DNA of 64,000 bases from the NCBI GenBank assembly GCA_030681595.1, contig JAUXSB010000003.1, forward strand, positions 95,207 to 159,206. The letters are read 5' to 3'. Every line of letters starts with the position of its first letter. The first letter of the stretch is position 1. Origin of the DNA: Candidatus Omnitrophota bacterium. GTDB lineage: Bacteria; Omnitrophota; Gorgyraeia; Ghiorseimicrobiales; Ghiorseimicrobiaceae. A model generated the notes under the pieces. It was not told the DNA's origin. It saw only the letters and a program-made list of their open reading frames with translations, and did no database searches. Positions 4,561-63,693 of this stretch are shown here, in pieces. The position numbers were made by a program, and so were the translations under genes.

Positions 4561-5840
4561 TAAAGGCCGGCGCCTGTTGAAGAAGCCATATTCACCATAC
4601 TGAATATAGGTAAAAATAATGCTACCAGCATAACTCCTATTACACCGCCCATAAATAAAAGCATTATCGGCTCAAAAATAGTGGCGAACCTTGAAACAAA
4701 AGTCTCTAAATACTCATCATAAAAATTGGCAACACGCCTGAACATTTTTGCGAGCTCTCCTACTTCCTCACCTACGGAAATCATCTGCACAACCAGAGGT
4801 TCAAAAAAATTGCTTTTATCCAAAAGCTCTGCCAATGGCCTGCCCTCCCTGACATTCGTTTTGATGCTGCGAATTATCCCTTCTAATATTTTATTGCCTA
4901 CGCTGCGCTCGGTAATCTCTAAGGCATAAAGTATAGGCACGCCGCCTTCAATCAATGTAGCCATCTCGGAAGTAAACCTCTCTACGGCAAGAATCTTAAA
5001 AAAATTGCCAAACACCGGAAGCTTTATTTTTACAGCGTCAACAACACGCTTTCCTGACGGATTTTGGCTAAACTGTTTATAGGCAAAAGTCATTAAAACT
5101 AAAATACCTATCCCCGGGAAAAAACCTTTCCTGACTAAAACGCTAAGTTTAACCAGCATCACCGTCAAAACGGGCAGTTCCGCGCCGAAACTTTCAAACA
5201 GGCTGGCAAACGTAGGCACAATTTTTATTACAAAAAATATAATCGCGCCTGTCGCCACAAAAAAGAGCAGCGCCGGATAAATAAGCGCCGAGACTATCTT
5301 TCTTCTAAAATTAGCCTGCATCTCCAGGTATTTGGCAAGCCTGTCTAAAACTAAAGCTAAATTCCCGCTTGCCTCTCCTGATTCAACCAAGTTAACCCAT
5401 AAATCCGAAAATATCTTCGGATGCTTAGAAAGAGCATCTTTTAAGGTTAAGCCCTCCTCTACGCCTTTTTTTGCCTCAGCAGTTACGTTATATAACATGC
5501 TTGAATCTACCTGCTTCATTAAGGTATCCAAGCTTTTATGTATTGTAATACCTGAATCGAGAAGGGTGGCTAATTGCCGTGCAAAAAAAACCAAGTCGTA
5601 TAACTTAACCCTGCGGTGCGTAAATCTCCTGGTAGCCCGTCTGCCGAAGCTAGCGCCTGGGTCAACCTGCCTTTTGTCTAAAGAAGTAATTTTTACAACC
5701 AGAAGCCCTTTTTCCTGAAGCCTGCCTATCAAGGCCTCTTCCGAAGGGACATCCACGATTCCGGATTCCTTTTTACCATCTTTGGTCCTGGCTACATAAG
5801 AAAACCTGCCCAAATTATCCCTCCCAAAAATCAAATACAA
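4560..5840 (-). CDS. pilC: Type II secretion system F-family platform protein (PilC/GspF)
   Basis: 426 aa with a conserved GspF-type N-terminus (FSYVARTKDGKKESGIVDVPSEEALIGRLQEKGLLVV) and paired 3-TM modules. Confidence 0.9.
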   Translation of the reverse strand: MYLIFGRDNLGRFSYVARTKDGKKESGIVDVPSEEALIGRLQEKGLLVVKITSLDKRQVDPGASFGRRATRRFTHRRVKLYDLVFFARQLATLLDSGITIHKSLDTLMKQVDSSMLYNVTAEAKKGVEEGLTLKDALSKHPKIFSDLWVNLVESGEASGNLALVLDRLAKYLEMQANFRRKIVSALIYPALLFFVATGAIIFFVIKIVPTFASLFESFGAELPVLTVMLVKLSVLVRKGFFPGIGILVLMTFAYKQFSQNPSGKRVVDAVKIKLPVFGNFFKILAVERFTSEMATLIEGGVPILYALEITERSVGNKILEGIIRSIKTNVREGRPLAELLDKSNFFEPLVVQMISVGEEVGELAKMFRRVANFYDEYLETFVSRFATIFEPIMLLFMGGVIGVMLVALFLPIFSMVNMASSTGAGL

Positions 5841-37391: not shown

Positions 37392-37465
37392 CTGGATTAA
37401 TGTATGATTTTAATCCAGGGGCCTTGTTAAATAAATCCCGTTAGAGAACTCCGTCCTCTAACGGG
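37392..37465 (-). terminator. Tandem hairpins downstream of the K-rich ORF (candidate terminators)
   Basis: GGCCCCTGGATTAA-n9-TTAATCCAGGGGCC (14-bp perfect stem, 37392-37428). CCCGTTAGAG-n9-CTCTAACGGG (37437-37465). A U-rich tract follows on the minus strand. Confidence 0.55.
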
Positions 37466-37471
37466 ATAAAC

Positions 37472-37714
37472 TTACTTTTTTTTCTTCTTTTTTCCGCCTC
37501 TGACCATCTTAGCACAAGAGATATCGCCTTGCTTATCGACGAAGTAAAGATAACCTTTTTCTTTCTTTACTCCAACCTTAGCGACTACGGTAGGGCTTCC
37601 ACCCTTTTTCTTGCCGCGGGCCATCTTTGCGCGGGATATGTTGCCTTTTTTATCCACGAAATAAAGATAACCATCTTCTCTTTTTACTCCTGCCTTCGCT
37701 ACTTTAGCTGCCAT
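37472..37714 (-). CDS. Lysine-rich small protein built from two tandem roughly 38-aa repeats
   Basis: VAKAGVKREDGYLYFVDKKGNISRAKMARGKKKGG / VAKVGVKKEKGYLYFVDKQGDISCAKMVRGGKKKK, about 75% identical halves. Poly-Lys C-terminus. Confidence 0.5.
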   Translation of the reverse strand: MAAKVAKAGVKREDGYLYFVDKKGNISRAKMARGKKKGGSPTVVAKVGVKKEKGYLYFVDKQGDISCAKMVRGGKKKKKK

Positions 37715-37736
37715 TCTGCGTCACCCCCTTTCGCAA

Positions 37737-37776
37737 TTAGTTTGTTTGTTAGTTCGTTTGTTTGTTGGTTAACAAA
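37737..37776. repeat. GTTTGTTAGTT-type tandem/inverted repeat (left arm; partner 38160..38184)
   Basis: ttagtttgtttgttagttcgtttgtttgttggttaac. The reverse complement of 38160-38184 (cttgattagtttgttagtttggtag) matches it imperfectly (about 16/19 core). The pair brackets the split four-helix-bundle ORFs. Confidence 0.35.
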
Positions 37777-38055
37777 CGCTTCCGTTGACTATTTATAAAA
37801 GAATTTAGCTGTGGCGCTAAATTATCAATATCTAAAATGAAGTTTTCATAATTCTCTCTCGATAATAATTTTCTATGTAATGCCCTTCTCAACCAATATT
37901 TTGTTTCTTTTAGTGAACCTCTCGCTATATAAAGAAAATTTATTACATCCTTTAGGATGATATCTACCTTGACTCTCAATAATATTTGCCCCTATTGAAT
38001 CCGCGGCTTTCACTAATTGTCTGCCTACGATATCTTTTGAAAAATAATCCCACAC
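37749..38055 (-). pseudogene. Frameshifted four-helix-bundle protein (23S rRNA intervening-sequence protein family)
   Basis: ORF 37873..38055 encodes the N-terminal half (QLVKAADSIGANIIESQGRYHPK). Overlapping ORF 37749..37979, in another frame, encodes the C-terminal half (FLYIARGSLKETKYWLRRAL). Together they span one roughly 120-aa family member. Confidence 0.6.
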
Positions 38056-38159
38056 GATAACTTAATCCCAGATTTTATCAGCGATTTCTTCTGCTTTTTT
38101 GAGTATTCTTAAATCTTCACTCTGCTCAAAAGCCATTTTTCAGCTATCTATCCAACAAG

Positions 38160-38184
38160 CTACCAAACTAACAAACTAATCAAG
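38160..38184. repeat. Right arm of the inverted repeat flanking the four-helix-bundle pseudogene
   Basis: ctaccaaactaacaaactaatcaag; see 37737..37776. Confidence 0.35.
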
Positions 38185-38986
38185 TACCAATCTTCACAGC
38201 GTCAAAAATTTGCTTTAATGTGGCAATCGCCGAAAGGGATGCCAAATAACTCGTCTTAGGGTTATCCGGAGACGGCACATTTTCTGTGCGGGTAAAAATC
38301 CTCCCGGCCTCGGATTCAATTTCTACTTCATGGATATTACGGTCAATTCCCGGCGAAGCGATAATACGCACAAAAGTCCTCTTTGCTCCTAAGCCGGCCA
38401 AACTTAGAGTTGCCGCTACATTGATATTCTGCGGAAATTTCCTCACTGCCTCGCAAGCATTACCTTTAAAAATTAGTGTTTCCTTTTTTATGTTGCTAAA
38501 ATAATCCGGCAAAGATTTAACGGGCTTTCGTGTCGTAAGAGTAATCTTTTTGATTTTTGAAATTGCCGCCGCCTTTAAACCATCTAATCCGCAGATTCCG
38601 CCCGAAGGAAAATAGATAGACGCGTTTTTCTTGCGCGCCTTTTGTAATAGATCCTCCCTCTCTAATAACCCCCCTGTACTCATCACCAAAATATCTTTTC
38701 CTTGAGAAATTACCTTCTCTGCCAGTTGCGCAGAAATGCCTACAGAAGCGCTCTCCACGACAAGGTCGCTTAAACGGATTAATCTATCCAAAGAACAAAT
38801 TCCTATTTTTTTATCTTTTAATTTATTCTTTAATTTTTCTGCTTTATTCTTATCTATATCACAAAGAGCAACAAGTTTTGCATAACTGCTAAAGTCTTTG
38901 GTTATCGCTTTAGCAATCCGCGAACCGATTGCACCGCAACCAACTATACCGATTTTTAATATATTCTTTCTCTTAATCCTCACCAC
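38180..38986 (-). CDS. nadX: L-aspartate dehydrogenase (NadX family)
   Basis: KIGIVGCGAIGSRIA..LVALCD..DLVVESASVGISAQLAEKVISQGKDILVMSTGGL..PSGGICGLDGLKAAA..ITLTTRKP matches NadX throughout. Confidence 0.7.
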   Translation of the reverse strand: MVRIKRKNILKIGIVGCGAIGSRIAKAITKDFSSYAKLVALCDIDKNKAEKLKNKLKDKKIGICSLDRLIRLSDLVVESASVGISAQLAEKVISQGKDILVMSTGGLLEREDLLQKARKKNASIYFPSGGICGLDGLKAAAISKIKKITLTTRKPVKSLPDYFSNIKKETLIFKGNACEAVRKFPQNINVAATLSLAGLGAKRTFVRIIASPGIDRNIHEVEIESEAGRIFTRTENVPSPDNPKTSYLASLSAIATLKQIFDAVKIGT

Positions 38987-41485: not shown

Positions 41486-42199
41486 TTAACTTTTTAGCAC
41501 ATCCTGCATGGAATAAAGCCCAGCGGGCTTTCCAAAAACCCATTTCGCGGCCGCAAGCGCACCCAAAGCAAATAAATCCCGGGAATGCGCCTGATGCTTT
41601 ATTTCAATACGCTCGGAATTCCCGCAGAAAATTACTGTATGGTCTCCAACAATATCCCCTAACCTTATCGCATGTGTGGGTATATCTTTTTTAGTAACAT
41701 GCGCCAAAACCTCTGCCATCTTTTTAGCTGTGCCCGAGGGAGCGTCTTTTTTAGCTTTATGGTGCGCCTCTACTATTTCAATGCTATAATCCGGGCCTAA
41801 CCTTCTTGCTATCTCCGGCAATATCGAAAATAAAACATTAACCCCGATAGACATATTCGGTGAAAAAACTACTGGTACAATTCTCGCAATTTCATTAATT
41901 TTTTTAATTTGTGCCTCATTAAATCCGGTAGTACCCAACACCAAAGCCTTTTTGTATTTAGCAATATAGCCTAAATTCTCTATGCTTGCCTCAGGCACAG
42001 TAAAGTCTATAAATATATCTACCAAAAATAACCCATCGGGGCTGGAAGATATTTTTAGTTTTCCCAAGTCTTTACCGATCATCGGCGTACCTTTCATCTC
42101 CAGAGCAAAAGACAATTCAAATTCTTTATCCTGACTGGCCAAAGCAAAAATTCTTCCTCCCATTTTGCCGCAGGCACCAGCAATACCTAATTTAATCAT
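41486..42199 (-). CDS. dapB: 4-hydroxy-tetrahydrodipicolinate reductase (DapB)
   Basis: MIKLGIAGACGKMGGRI.. Likely ATG start preceded by GAGGAG. The ORF-track TTG start at 42304 lies inside the leader cassette and is probably not used. Confidence 0.85.
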   Translation of the reverse strand: MIKLGIAGACGKMGGRIFALASQDKEFELSFALEMKGTPMIGKDLGKLKISSSPDGLFLVDIFIDFTVPEASIENLGYIAKYKKALVLGTTGFNEAQIKKINEIARIVPVVFSPNMSIGVNVLFSILPEIARRLGPDYSIEIVEAHHKAKKDAPSGTAKKMAEVLAHVTKKDIPTHAIRLGDIVGDHTVIFCGNSERIEIKHQAHSRDLFALGALAAAKWVFGKPAGLYSMQDVLKS

Positions 42200-53204: not shown

Positions 53205-53380
53205 TCCGACGAGCGCAAAAAAACAGCATATTAATATTATAGTATTAAAATTGACGAGGTCAAGCCCCGTCAGAAATACGCCAAAATCCGGCGATAAAAC
53301 CCACCCACGCTAAAACCCCTTGTCTAACTTTTTAATAATAACACAGATTTTCTAACGGGGCAAGGATTTTTCTCGTCGGA
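53205..53380. repeat. Nested inverted-repeat module in the arg leader: outer TCCGACGAG/CTCGTCGGA; inner GCCCCGTCAGAAA/TTTCTAACGGGGC
   Basis: Outer arms at about 53205-53213 and 53372-53380. Inner arms at about 53263-53275 and 53341-53353 (12/13). The inner arm is a variant of the CCCCGTTAGAGA motif seen at 37.4 and 61.7 kb. The module contains the arg promoter. Confidence 0.5.
53235..53262 (-). promoter_or_regulatory. Candidate sigma70 promoter for the argCJBDFGH operon (TTGACC-16-TATAAT)
   Basis: Minus-strand read TTGACCtcgtcaattttaatacTATAAT, about 55 nt upstream of the argC ATG. SD GGAG/AAGG lies upstream of the start. Confidence 0.55.
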
Positions 53381-61728: not shown

Positions 61729-61848
61729 CCCCGTTAGAGATAGCCCCGAAACTTCGGGGCGTCTATAGGGGGCTAAATTTTATATTAGCTAATGCTTCCT
61801 TAAGGTGTAATTTTACCAAATGTGAAATACTTACAATCTCTAACGGGG
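61729..61848. repeat. Inverted-repeat-bounded module: CCCCGTTAGAGAT ... ATCTCTAACGGGG (perfect 13-bp IRs) with internal hairpin GCCCCGAA-ac-TTCGGGGC
   Basis: Left arm 61729-61741, right arm 61836-61848. A third direct copy of ATCTCTAACGGGG at 61908-61920 lies inside the last codons (PVRDNC) of the fumarase beta gene. Confidence 0.6.
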
Positions 61849-61898
61849 TTTAAAAATATCCCAGCTTCTATATTATAGCACCTACCTATATAAACAAT

Positions 61899-62501
61899 TT
61901 AGCAGTTATCTCTAACGGGGTAAAGATCATTCCCATAAGCATCGATACCAACAATTACGGGAAATTCTTGTACTGCTAATTTATAAATTGCCTCTGTGCC
62001 CAAATCCGGATAAGCAACAAGTTCTGCTTTTTTAACAAAAGTGGACAGGAGCGCTCCGCAGCCAGAGTAAGCTAAAAAATATACTGCCTTATGCCTTTTT
62101 ATTACTTGCCTTACCTCTTCTGAACGCATACCTTTGCCAATCATCCCTTTTAGGCCTGCTTTAAGCAATAGAGGCACGAAACTATCCATCCTTGAACTGG
62201 TCGTCGGCCCGCAGGAACCGATAACTTCCCCTTCTCTTGCCGGCGTCGGCCCGCAGTAATAAATTAAAGCACCCTTTAAATTAACAGGTAAAGTTTTATT
62301 ATCTTTAATCGCCTCGGACAATCTCTTGTGTGCCTGGTCGCGGGCGGTATAAATTACACCACTCAATAAAACCTCATCGCCAGCCGCCAACTTTTCTATT
62401 TCGGATTTCTTTAACGGCAATTTTATTTTTTTTGTTTTATTCATCTTTTGACGCCATGCCGCAATAACTCTATAATGTTTTTGTCGCGCTGCGAAGAGCA
62501 T
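61899..62501 (-). CDS. Class I fumarate hydratase / tartrate dehydratase beta subunit (Fe-S hydro-lyase, beta region)
   Basis: GDEVLLSGVIYTARDQAHKRL..YYCGPTPAREGEVIGSCGPTTSSRMD..GMIGKGMR. Likely start MNKTKK (about 62444). Confidence 0.8.
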   Translation of the reverse strand: MLFAARQKHYRVIAAWRQKMNKTKKIKLPLKKSEIEKLAAGDEVLLSGVIYTARDQAHKRLSEAIKDNKTLPVNLKGALIYYCGPTPAREGEVIGSCGPTTSSRMDSFVPLLLKAGLKGMIGKGMRSEEVRQVIKRHKAVYFLAYSGCGALLSTFVKKAELVAYPDLGTEAIYKLAVQEFPVIVGIDAYGNDLYPVRDNC

Positions 62502-63294
62502 GACAACTGATATTTACACATACAGGAAGCCCCGCAATATGTGTAGGATAAGTTTCTATATTTACACCCAAACAAGTGGCTTTCCCGCCTAACCCCATCG
62601 GCCCGATTTTTAACCTGTTTATCCTTGTTAATAATTCTCCTTCTAATTTCGAACCCTTACGCCCTATGGGCCTAAGCAGGGCCTTTTTTGCCAAAAGACA
62701 GGCATAATCTGCAGTGCCCCCGATACCTACACCCAAGACATACGGCGGGCAGGCATCGGGCCCGGCAGACTTAATCGCCTCAATTATGAAATTTTTAATG
62801 TCGCTGATGCCGGCTGTCGGCTTAAACATCATTAACTGCGATTTGTTTTCGCAGCCAAACCCTTTAGGAGAAACAGTTATCATTAATCTGTTACCCTTAA
62901 CAATATCTATATGAATTACGGCAGGAGAATATCCCGGCTTGTTTCTTTTGAGGGGGTCGTTGACAATAGAAGCCCTAAGGTAACCTTTTACATAACCTAA
63001 AGTAATTCCTCTATTAATAGCTTCATTAAAATCACCTCCGCTGATATGTATATCTTGGCCAAGCTCTACAAATACAACCGGCATACCGGTATCCTGGCAA
63101 ACCGCCAACTGCCTCTCTGCGGCAATCTCCGCATTCTTCAACAGTTCTCGTAAGATTTGTTTTGGGCGCTTCTCGGATTCTTTCCGGTAAGCTTTTTTTA
63201 ATTCGCCTAAAACGTCCTCTCTTAAATCGGTATTTGCCTGAATAGACAAAGCCACTACTGTCGTTGTTATTAAATTTACGCTGATATCTCTCAT
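62470..63294 (-). CDS. Class I fumarate hydratase / tartrate dehydratase alpha subunit
   Basis: AVCQDTGMPVVFVELGQDIHISGG..YLRASIVNDPL matches the Fe-S hydro-lyase alpha domain. Confidence 0.8.
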   Translation of the reverse strand: MRDISVNLITTTVVALSIQANTDLREDVLGELKKAYRKESEKRPKQILRELLKNAEIAAERQLAVCQDTGMPVVFVELGQDIHISGGDFNEAINRGITLGYVKGYLRASIVNDPLKRNKPGYSPAVIHIDIVKGNRLMITVSPKGFGCENKSQLMMFKPTAGISDIKNFIIEAIKSAGPDACPPYVLGVGIGGTADYACLLAKKALLRPIGRKGSKLEGELLTRINRLKIGPMGLGGKATCLGVNIETYPTHIAGLPVCVNISCHALRSATKTL

Positions 63295-63693
63295 TTATTC
63301 CCCCTGGTATTCCCGCACAACACTGGTTGTTATCCCGCCGCGGGGGTTAAACACACCGCTGATTTTTACCCATCTGGGACTGACGGCATTTACGAAATCA
63401 TCCGTAATTTTATTAATTACATTTTCATGAAATATCCCGAGGTTGCGGTAAAAAATCGTATACATCTTAAATGACTTTAGTTCCACGCAATATTTATCAG
63501 GGGAATAATCAATCTTTATTACTGCAAAATCCGGCAAGCCTGTCTTTGGGCAAATACAGCTAAATTCAGGCATATCTAAAGAAACAATATAATCTTTATC
63601 GCTATATTGATTCTTAAAAACATCTATTTTAGGAGTTTTGAGGCTGCGAATACTACTCTGCAGGCCTTCATAAGAAGCCTTCTTGTTTTGCAT
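63295..63693 (-). CDS. queF: NADPH-dependent 7-cyano-7-deazaguanine reductase (QueF, unimodular type)
   Basis: MPEFSCICPKTGLPDFAVIKIDYSPDKYCVELKSFKMY..FRNLGIFHENVINKITDD..GVFNPRGGI. Confidence 0.85.
   Translation of the reverse strand: MQNKKASYEGLQSSIRSLKTPKIDVFKNQYSDKDYIVSLDMPEFSCICPKTGLPDFAVIKIDYSPDKYCVELKSFKMYTIFYRNLGIFHENVINKITDDFVNAVSPRWVKISGVFNPRGGITTSVVREYQGE

Follow-up and report, generated by a model that had tools for sequence, protein, structure and literature searches.

Which process scatters a short inverted repeat between the housekeeping genes of an uncultured bacterium? This question is raised by a 64-kb stretch of a Candidatus Omnitrophota genome (hereafter the window), for which a preliminary description had reported a 12-13-bp inverted repeat bounding small modules at several loci. 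We located three such modules in the window, here called elements A, B and C, and found that they are very probably MITEs (transposable elements of the miniature inverted-repeat type) that are flanked by 4-bp target-site duplications (TSDs), polymorphic with respect to a close relative and members of a family that extends across phyla. This family is likely linked to a second kind of element, about 280 bp long, which encodes a GIY-YIG nuclease. The best explanation as a whole, to which we assign a probability of roughly 65%, is that MITEs with terminal inverted repeats (TIRs) and TSDs and their 280-bp GIY-YIG relatives are served by the nuclease acting in trans on folded ends. For the specific proposal that the nuclease mobilises both the MITEs and the full-length elements, the evidence appears evenly balanced.

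Results

An inverted repeat at three intergenic loci of the window

The 13-mer CCCCGTTAGAGAT is present exactly at 61729-61741 (plus strand) and at 61836-61848 and 61908-61920 (both minus strand), as first described, and all three copies extend to the 14-mer ACCCCGTTAGAGAT. The motif is above chance: with up to two mismatches the window contains seven matches, compared to 0.97 expected, and none of 100 shuffled windows reached seven. Six of these arms share the exact 9-mer core CCCGTTAGA (37437+, 37457-, 53351-, 61730+, 61839- and 61911-), while the seventh arm reads CCCGTCAGA (53266+), and all seven belong to inverted pairs at three intergenic loci. A match at 41842 (CCCCGATAGACAT), within dapB, probably reflects chance.

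Element A (37436-37466) is a minimal version of 31 nt, composed of two ends of 11-12 nt and a 9-nt loop, and is flanked by TAAA on both the left (37432-37435) and the right (37467-37470). The tight hairpin previously noted at 37437-37465 was recovered, with a predicted folding energy of -26.5 kcal/mol (z -7.3). The element lies 5 nt past the stop codon of an 80-aa gene and is followed by a separate terminator-like hairpin. This gene (37472-37714, minus strand) specifies a lysine-rich protein with two repeats of about 40 residues (...KREDGYLYFVDKKGNISRAKMARGKKKGG...) and no Pfam match, and it is conserved beside the gene for a DUF2079 protein in the close relative introduced below.

Element B (53265-53360, minus strand) is a 96-nt MITE with the arms CCCCGTCAGAAAT and TTTTCTAACGGGG, flanked by CAAG on the plus strand (CTTG on the minus strand) at 53261-53264 and 53361-53364. 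Its neighbours are the rpsI terminator on one side and the argC promoter on the other. The variant repeat pair reported for this region is therefore real (53265-53277 and 53348-53360), but it does not bracket the arg promoter as had been thought; it stands directly upstream of it, with the argC -35 (TTGACC) and -10 (TATAAT) boxes at 53263-53236 on the minus strand, outside the element, and the -35 box beginning directly after it. The outer repeat TCCGACGAG/CTCGTCGGA, within which the pair was said to be nested, is likewise present (53205-53213 and 53372-53380) but is host sequence, since it is unchanged in the relative, which lacks element B. There its arms are about 60 nt apart and surround the -35 and -10 boxes, so that this repeat may be an operator of the argC promoter; the insertion of element B moved the upstream arm 100 nt farther off.

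Element C (61729-61848, minus strand) is a 120-nt MITE between the fumB stop codon and the ribosome-binding site of rph. In minus-strand orientation it runs from a 5' end at 61848-61836 to a 3' end at 61741-61729; the arms are perfectly complementary over 14 nt, and the element folds with a predicted energy of -46 kcal/mol (z -5.0). Its flanks, TTCA and TTTA on the plus strand, agree at three of four positions. The third copy of the end (61908-61920), a 5' end in the minus-strand reading, lies in the last codons of the gene for fumarase beta (61899-62501, minus strand).

On the minus strand, elements B and C share a common plan, in which an end is followed by an AT-rich stretch, a GC hairpin, the triplet TAT and the second end. 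The sub-terminal hairpin of B, CGCCGGATTTTGGCG (53279-53293, minus strand), is followed by TAT and the 3' end, and that of C, GCCCCGAAACTTCGGGGC (61743-61760, minus strand), lies beside the 3' end. None of the three elements contains an open reading frame (ORF). A search of Rfam found only one tRNA in the window at the gathering score, and nothing relevant at E values up to 10. Since the arms are 9, 72 and 96 nt apart, the elements do not fit the earlier suggestion of a protein-binding terminus with fixed geometry.

Empty sites in a close relative

We compared the window with a close relative from Logan/ENA assemblies, in which RNase PH is 95% and the DUF2079 protein 84% identical, and found clean empty sites for elements A and B, so that the presence/absence polymorphism proposed as a check is indeed observed. 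At site A, exactly 35 nt are absent from the relative, corresponding to the 31-nt hairpin and one 4-bp copy. At site B, the relative reads ...GAGAAAAATC-CTTG-ACCTCGTC... with a single CTTG, to which the window adds the 96-nt element and a second CTTG; the TSD of element B thereby rebuilds the -35 box of argC. A and B are thus insertions that postdate the separation of the window's lineage from this relative, with which it shares 84-95% protein identity.

Site C has a longer history. In the relative it is occupied by one 122-nt element that reaches from the fumB tail (TTCCGTTAGAGAT) to ATCTCTGACGGGG, and whose end copy in the fumB tail pairs with the 3' end. Given that the hairpin and 3' end of C are common to the window and the 95% relative, the insertion at C is older than those of A and B. 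Conservation with the relative extends over the first 71 nt of C, after which a complete second element begins and runs to the common 3' end. In the simplest reconstruction, a second copy would have inserted within the first at TAAA, and the stretch between the two 3' ends would later have been deleted.

The relative also carries a copy of its own, about 122 nt long, at the queF/fumA junction (locus L122, 8357-8479), the flanks of which form no clean 4-bp repeat; in the window the queF stop and the fumA start overlap at this position (63294-63297). With A and B inserted in the window and this copy in the relative, both lineages have seen activity of the family since their divergence. Both host genes had their ends altered. 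In relatives with 79-82% identity, fumB ends in ...GNDIY or ...GGNIYV, whereas in the window and the 95% relative it ends in ...Y(P/S)VRDNC; in the window tail, YPVRDNC, the element end CCC GTT AGA GAT encodes the residues PVRD. Similarly, queF of the relative has gained the tail ...SPVRDKH.

Two further observations concern the fumB-rph spacer. In an 82% relative it holds a different inverted-repeat module, TTTACCCCGAGGAATT...AATTCCCGGG (L124, 700-900), and may therefore have been struck by another repeat family too. In a Logan short-read assembly of the same organism, one contig (L001, 1-50) ends within element C, at about window position 61757, which is consistent with the repeat breaking assemblies.

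Apart from the elements, nearly all genes of the window are housekeeping genes on the minus strand, which include those for type IV pili/type II secretion, sugar-nucleotide metabolism, lysine and arginine biosynthesis, uvrA, rplM-rpsI, rph, fumarase and queuosine. An insert of about 437 bp without counterpart in the close relative lies at 37730-38190 and has imperfect inverted repeats of 36-42 nt (GTTTGTTAGTTTG... and ...CAAACAAACTAAC). It contains a frameshifted gene (ORFs 37749-37979 and 37873-38055, minus strand) whose product, judged by eye only, presumably resembles the four-helix-bundle protein of 23S rRNA intervening sequences. With inverted ends and one small gene, the insert has the appearance of a second element type.

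A MITE family spread across phyla

A scan of one genome per species with the pattern CCCGTYAGARA-N68-98-TYTCTRACGGG yielded at least 120 stretches, where a few tens are estimated by chance. By record title, 69 of the listed stretches come from Patescibacteria, 11 each from Omnitrophota and Desulfobacterota-like bacteria, eight from Planctomycetota and two from Nitrospirota, with five from other groups and 14 unclassified. In the listed loci the cores almost always form convergent pairs 90-120 nt apart, and further pairs that lay outside the selection are again mostly 60-120 nt long. Up to three or four copies were found within 8 kb (L017, L106 and L108).

The duplication of the target is evident across the family. 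The four bases at positions -5 to -2 equal those at +2 to +5 in 90 of 145 pairs, compared to a mean of 12.1 and a maximum of 26 when partners were shuffled, and neighbouring offsets gave far fewer matches. The bases that adjoin the core at the two ends complement each other (C/G or T/A) and hence belong to the element, giving the end consensus YCCCGTTAGARA. Preferred TSDs are TGAA and its complement TTCA, TAAA and TTTA, and TGGA. With TIRs of 12-14 nt, 4-bp TSDs, empty sites at two of three loci and more than 100 copies elsewhere, the MITE-like character suggested by the preliminary description is upheld, while its REP-like (repetitive extragenic palindromic) alternative is not.

Insertions were preferentially observed exactly on host start codons. 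In 59 of 125 MITEs a host ORF begins exactly at the junction, and the junction frame is open at 80 of 250 ends, compared to 22-23 in the other frames. The end that abuts the start codon is the hairpin-bearing one in 44 cases and the other in 15.

We found no transposase between or beside the ends in the window or in about 200 related loci, and all-against-all clustering of ORFs in about 1 Mb of flanking DNA revealed no recurrent neighbour gene. Unpaired arms had housekeeping neighbours only. A search of 120 loci for longer elements (0.3-4.5 kb) with the same ends and matching flanks showed no transposase ORF (>300 aa). Among 2.9 million viral contigs the MITE pattern had no match and the nuclease described below one distant match, which argues that the element is not phage-borne.

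One arrangement that resembled an insertion sequence (IS), with two inverted MITE copies around 2.6 kb in locus L010, proved to be an inverted duplication of about 330 nt (2046-2369 and 4832-5155) with a MITE copy in each arm, flanking the gene for a 686-aa secreted protein; more copies of this MITE are found at contig ends of the same metagenome-assembled genome (MAG; L007 and L052). Another locus (L103, 5058-5165) has an entire tRNA-Ala(CGC) gene (5074-5147) between two such ends, and represents either a MITE with a tRNA cargo or two solo ends around a tRNA.

Elements with the same ends encode a GIY-YIG nuclease

The three longest of the 145 pairs each contain one ORF on the minus strand of the locus (L054, 6920-7199; L116, 3889-4165; L004, 3774-4160), the last being interrupted by a nested MITE, and all three pairs of 276-283 nt have a GIY-YIG ORF. 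The product is a GIY-YIG nuclease of 84-89 aa (PF01541, E 6e-14 to 4e-16). Among the matches listed, these GIY-YIG elements are the only coding members of the family.

We then approached the association from the protein, by searching JGI metagenomes with a protein alignment alone, which gave 80 loci, 75 of them non-redundant. Although these loci were selected by protein similarity only, the 5' end of the element lies 4-8 nt upstream of the nuclease ATG in 70 of the 72 that could be assessed, and the last part of the ORF overlaps the 3' end in essentially all loci. A full-length element of 273-286 bp therefore consists of the 5' end, 4-8 nt, a gene of 84-89 codons and a 3' end overlapping the gene end. 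The stop codon is either a TAA within the 3' end (...LGASYL) or a TGA formed together with the TSD (...RFLSLTG), and the TSD is 4 bp, sometimes 5 bp. The variants of the ends track the lineage of the nuclease, with T...A in Patescibacteria and C...G in Omnitrophota and Desulfobacterota-like bacteria. The nuclease gene is under purifying selection, with a median dN/dS of 0.15 and 63 of 64 ORFs intact.

As with the MITEs, the full-length elements usually sit on host start codons. The triplet formed by the last base of the element and the first two bases of the TSD is ATG in 45 and GTG in 11 of 69 loci, and a host ORF of at least 60 codons opens at this triplet in 43 of 61 loci, whereas the control frames gave 5 and 1. 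ATG or GTG is thus rebuilt from the final A or G of the element and the duplicated TG, which leaves the host gene translatable. Some gene calls of 92 aa, beginning M(N/D/S)PVRD, represent the host ATG, the TSD and the element end, read into the nuclease. The left flanks of loci L126-L205 often hold an extended -10 sequence, TGnTATAAT, 8-12 nt upstream of the host ATG. This spacing suggests leaderless or near-leaderless transcripts, with the element then at their head.

Three elements from diverged metagenomic genomes (L140, 377-654; L144, 1483-1760; L149, 1483-1760) are 94-95% identical and occupy the start codon of the same orthologue (MQFKVPQFL...), a host gene that is 69-76% identical between these genomes, with upstream DNA that cannot be aligned. 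Such a pattern suggests that the element recently spread laterally into a single preferred site. Directly upstream of tRNA-Ala (L002, 4291-4720) and tRNA-Asn (L017, 2094-2530) genes we also saw GIY-YIG ORFs that are more distant and lack the ends described here; duplicated 5' tRNA fragments flank them, as though tRNA genes had been the insertion target.

Covarying helices and an Slx1-like fold

An alignment of 64 full-length elements revealed two conserved helices. In P1, where one end pairs with the other, pairing reaches 99%, and both partners have changed in 7 of 13 pairs. P2 comprises 15 bp, is 91% paired and has seven pairs changed on both sides, for example G-C in 36 and A-U in 25 elements, or C-G in 31 and U-A in 31. 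None of 500 shuffles reached the observed values, and pairing in slid controls did not exceed 52%. One strand of P2 falls on the codons for D-L-R-K-R-F (columns 100-114) and the other on those for R-L-K-R-F-L immediately before the 3' end (columns 262-276); these strands lie about 85 nt from the 5' end and 2-3 nt from the 3' end, respectively. This asymmetry makes symmetric protein sites unlikely and points to pairing in single-stranded or extruded DNA, or in RNA.

The MITEs retain P1 and a short-loop P2. The layout ACG-stem-loop-stem-TAT-end, found in many of them, matches the covarying P2 of the 64 full-length elements, and the sub-terminal hairpin of element C is its counterpart in the window. 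Removal of the P2 loop of about 147 nt, which comprises most of the gene, from a 278-bp element would leave approximately the 115-120 nt observed for MITEs.

The nuclease matches the UPF0213 protein 1ZG2 in sequence (phmmer, E 3.4e-7), and also 1YWL. Its AlphaFold model (pLDDT, the predicted local distance difference test, 93) retrieved 1ZG2 first in Foldseek, followed by Slx1-Slx4 and plant HIGLE, which are structure-specific nucleases, while I-TevI and UvrC ranked far lower. The GIY, YIG, Arg and Glu positions are conserved. With 84-89 aa the protein is a bare catalytic domain that lacks a separate DNA-binding domain, and it scores only 20-23 bits against TIGR01453, where the cut-off is 56. 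When matches with E up to 1e-3 are grouped at 50% identity, the protein family comprises 6320 clusters, or 669 for E up to 1e-10, and its members are annotated in the source databases as "GIY-YIG nuclease family protein", "putative endonuclease" or, wrongly, "excinuclease ABC subunit C".

Discussion

Alternative explanations

The main rival account, which we nevertheless consider unlikely, is that an unlinked DDE transposase, for which an IS1380/piggyBac-like enzyme would be suitable, mobilises the modules in trans as ordinary MITEs, the GIY-YIG gene being a captured passenger or a homing helper. TIRs with a TSD of 4 bp, sometimes 5 bp, are the classic signature of DDE enzymes, one of which could be encoded elsewhere in the genome; IS1380 elements have ends that begin with CC and TSDs of 4-5 bp. 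Moreover, no GIY-YIG enzyme is known to transpose DNA, and the 64-kb window contains no GIY-YIG gene. However, the absence of any transposase ORF from the window and from between or beside the ends of about 200 loci speaks against a DDE enzyme, as does the presence of the nuclease gene between these ends in loci that were chosen by protein similarity. The layout is fixed at 278 bp, and the ends overlap the leader and stop of the nuclease gene and covary with the nuclease lineage; such integration is not expected of a passenger.

Spread of the nuclease elements mainly by homing, in which an empty allele would be cut by the nuclease and the element copied in by recombination, with the 4-bp flanks reflecting a preferred site rather than transposition, appears quite improbable. 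The GIY-YIG domain is typical of homing endonucleases, as the weak TIGR01453 match recalls, and the near-identical elements at the start codon of one orthologue in three diverged genomes suggest that there is a homing component. Yet A, B and most MITEs lie at unrelated sites with different 4-bp TSDs, and empty sites hold a single copy of the four bases, which indicates insertion into new sites and not allele conversion. In addition, the nuclease fold is Slx1-like rather than I-TevI-like, and homing endonucleases are not known to need inverted ends and normally lack them.

The geometry of the window elements, short intergenic palindromes that are single (A) or in inverted doublets of about 100 nt (B and C), recalls REP sequences and REPINs, and the preliminary description had proposed REP-like elements and a check for a TnpA of the IS200/IS605 type. 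That the elements are palindromes of this sort maintained by RAYT, an IS200/IS605-like Y1 transposase, is nevertheless extremely improbable: TSDs are present, although REP/RAYT and IS200/IS605 systems are not known to make any, no Y1 transposase is encoded in the window or beside the approximately 200 related loci, and the linked gene is a GIY-YIG nuclease. Palindromes derived from IS200/IS605 elements were rejected on similar grounds; these have sub-terminal hairpins without TIRs, no TSD and a TnpA/TnpB partner, in contrast to the true TIRs and 4-bp TSD seen here, where neither TnpA nor TnpB was found. Equally hard to credit is the idea of non-mobile host elements, such as structured RNAs, terminators or operator sites for a common DNA-binding protein. 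The strong predicted hairpins, the covarying helices and the positions beside promoters, terminators and ribosome-binding sites would suit such a role, but presence/absence with exact boundaries and four duplicated bases does not, and neither do the differing arm spacings, the interiors unrelated between copies or the lack of an Rfam match at E up to 10. Secondary co-option of individual elements by the host may occur.

Three further candidates were tried and rejected. Integron attC sites have the order 5'-RYYYAAC ... GTTRRRY-3', with extrahelical bases and cassette arrays beside an integrase, whereas the core boxes here are in reverse order (GTTAGAG ... CTCTAAC), with neither cassette arrays nor an integrase. 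A Xer/dif-like 11-6-11 site, as tandem junctions of the form TCTCTAACGGG ATGAAT CCCGTTAGAGA might suggest (L091 and L017), is contradicted by solitary copies without the outer arm and by empty sites that place the arms in the inserted DNA. A DNA-uptake or promoter-linked motif, considered because arms abut TTGACA, does not agree with arms that are nearly always convergent pairs with a TSD.

Mechanism and open difficulties

In the explanation we favour, the nuclease would act in trans, recognising the folded or paired ends (P1 and P2) as a branched DNA structure and introducing the cuts by which the element moves; cleavage of the target with a 4-nt stagger would give rise to the 4-bp TSD. Translational coupling, through ATGA or TAA-N5-ATG, would keep the downstream host gene expressed, and the element would thus become a translationally coupled first cistron of host operons in Patescibacteria, Omnitrophota and other phyla. 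That this constitutes a new class of element, with an Slx1-like GIY-YIG protein of about 85 residues as its sole protein, no transposase of the DDE, HUH, serine, tyrosine or Cas1 kind, and landing on start codons as a coupled first cistron, we propose only tentatively.

Several points weigh against this explanation, in addition to those named above in favour of a DDE enzyme. GIY-YIG enzymes are hydrolytic nucleases, and a protein of 84 aa has no obvious domain for reading a 12-bp end. MITE and nuclease co-occur in one genome only anecdotally (L004 and L042, both from one Omnitrophota MAG). Identical nuclease proteins on 23-24 contigs represent one locus across samples, each with a single genomic context, and hence provide no evidence for multi-copy full-length elements. 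When searched with the full-length profile (nhmmer), MITEs aligned at their ends only, over about 20-40 nt, and their interiors thus have no detectable homology to the gene. The preference for start codons could result from selection after insertion and not from targeting. In the window itself, the flanks of element C match imperfectly, and the nested-insertion history of this element is a reconstruction.

Comparison with known systems

In many respects the family resembles known bacterial MITEs, such as Correia/NEMIS in Neisseria, RUP in Streptococcus and Nezha in cyanobacteria. These are likewise non-coding, 30-300 bp long, intergenic and strain-polymorphic, have TIRs, a short TSD and long hairpins, and can alter the ends and promoters of neighbouring genes. 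They derive from IS elements with DDE transposases or, as for Correia, have no known partner. The present family differs in that its coding relative, the sole kind among the matches listed, carries a GIY-YIG nuclease, and in that the same 12-nt end is found across many phyla, on start codons in about half of cases. Elements of the IS1380/piggyBac type share ends beginning CC(C), a 4-5-bp TSD and a T..A-biased target, which is TTAA for piggyBac, but differ in their DDE transposase, for which we found no counterpart near the present ends. REP/REPIN-RAYT systems are similar in comprising short palindromic, non-autonomous repeats, presumably served by a small nuclease-type gene that is flanked by the repeats and, in the case of RAYT, usually single-copy; that gene, however, belongs to the HUH Y1 and not to the GIY-YIG superfamily, and REPINs have no TSD.

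With GIY-YIG homing genes (T4 seg and the I-TevI family) the full-length elements share a small selfish nuclease gene between intact host genes, and near-identical copies at the same orthologous site in diverged genomes. Such homing genes are not known to have inverted ends, a TSD or miniature derivatives. They carry a separate DNA-binding domain, whereas the present protein is a bare catalytic domain with a fold closer to Slx1 than to I-TevI. In sequence and predicted fold, including the conserved GIY, YIG, Arg and Glu residues, the nuclease most resembles UPF0213/YhbQ (1ZG2 and 1YWL), Slx1 and HIGLE. Stand-alone bacterial Slx1-like proteins have been regarded as repair enzymes that are inherited vertically (Dunin-Horkawicz et al. 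2006, PMC1564403); here, in contrast, a large Slx1-like subfamily resides in TIR/TSD elements at unrelated loci. GIY-YIG ORFs have previously been noticed in rRNA insertions of Patescibacteria (Tsurumaki et al., PMC11270868), in agreement with the view taken here, and GIY-YIG genes are among those that Patescibacteria donate laterally according to a 2025 study (PMC12455944). In the literature searched, which did not extend to subscription-only papers, we found neither a prokaryotic GIY-YIG element with inverted ends and a TSD nor this MITE family, and the GIY-YIG nuclease element is apparently an undescribed type.

Significance

On the conservative reading, a MITE family is active in genome-reduced, uncultured lineages that are thought to be poor in mobile DNA, where it remodels gene ends (the fumB and queF tails) and promoter-proximal DNA (argC) and breaks short-read assemblies. 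If the nuclease is the mobility enzyme, the full-length element, at about 280 bp, would be roughly the most compact autonomous DNA transposon known and the first to rely on the GIY-YIG fold. This would add an enzyme class to the short list of those that move DNA, give a function to a widespread orphan family, the UPF0213-like proteins, and explain the scattered GIY-YIG ORFs in the rRNA insertions of Patescibacteria (PMC11270868). The family also offers a natural model for how a cistron can be placed on a start codon such that the gene downstream is not silenced.

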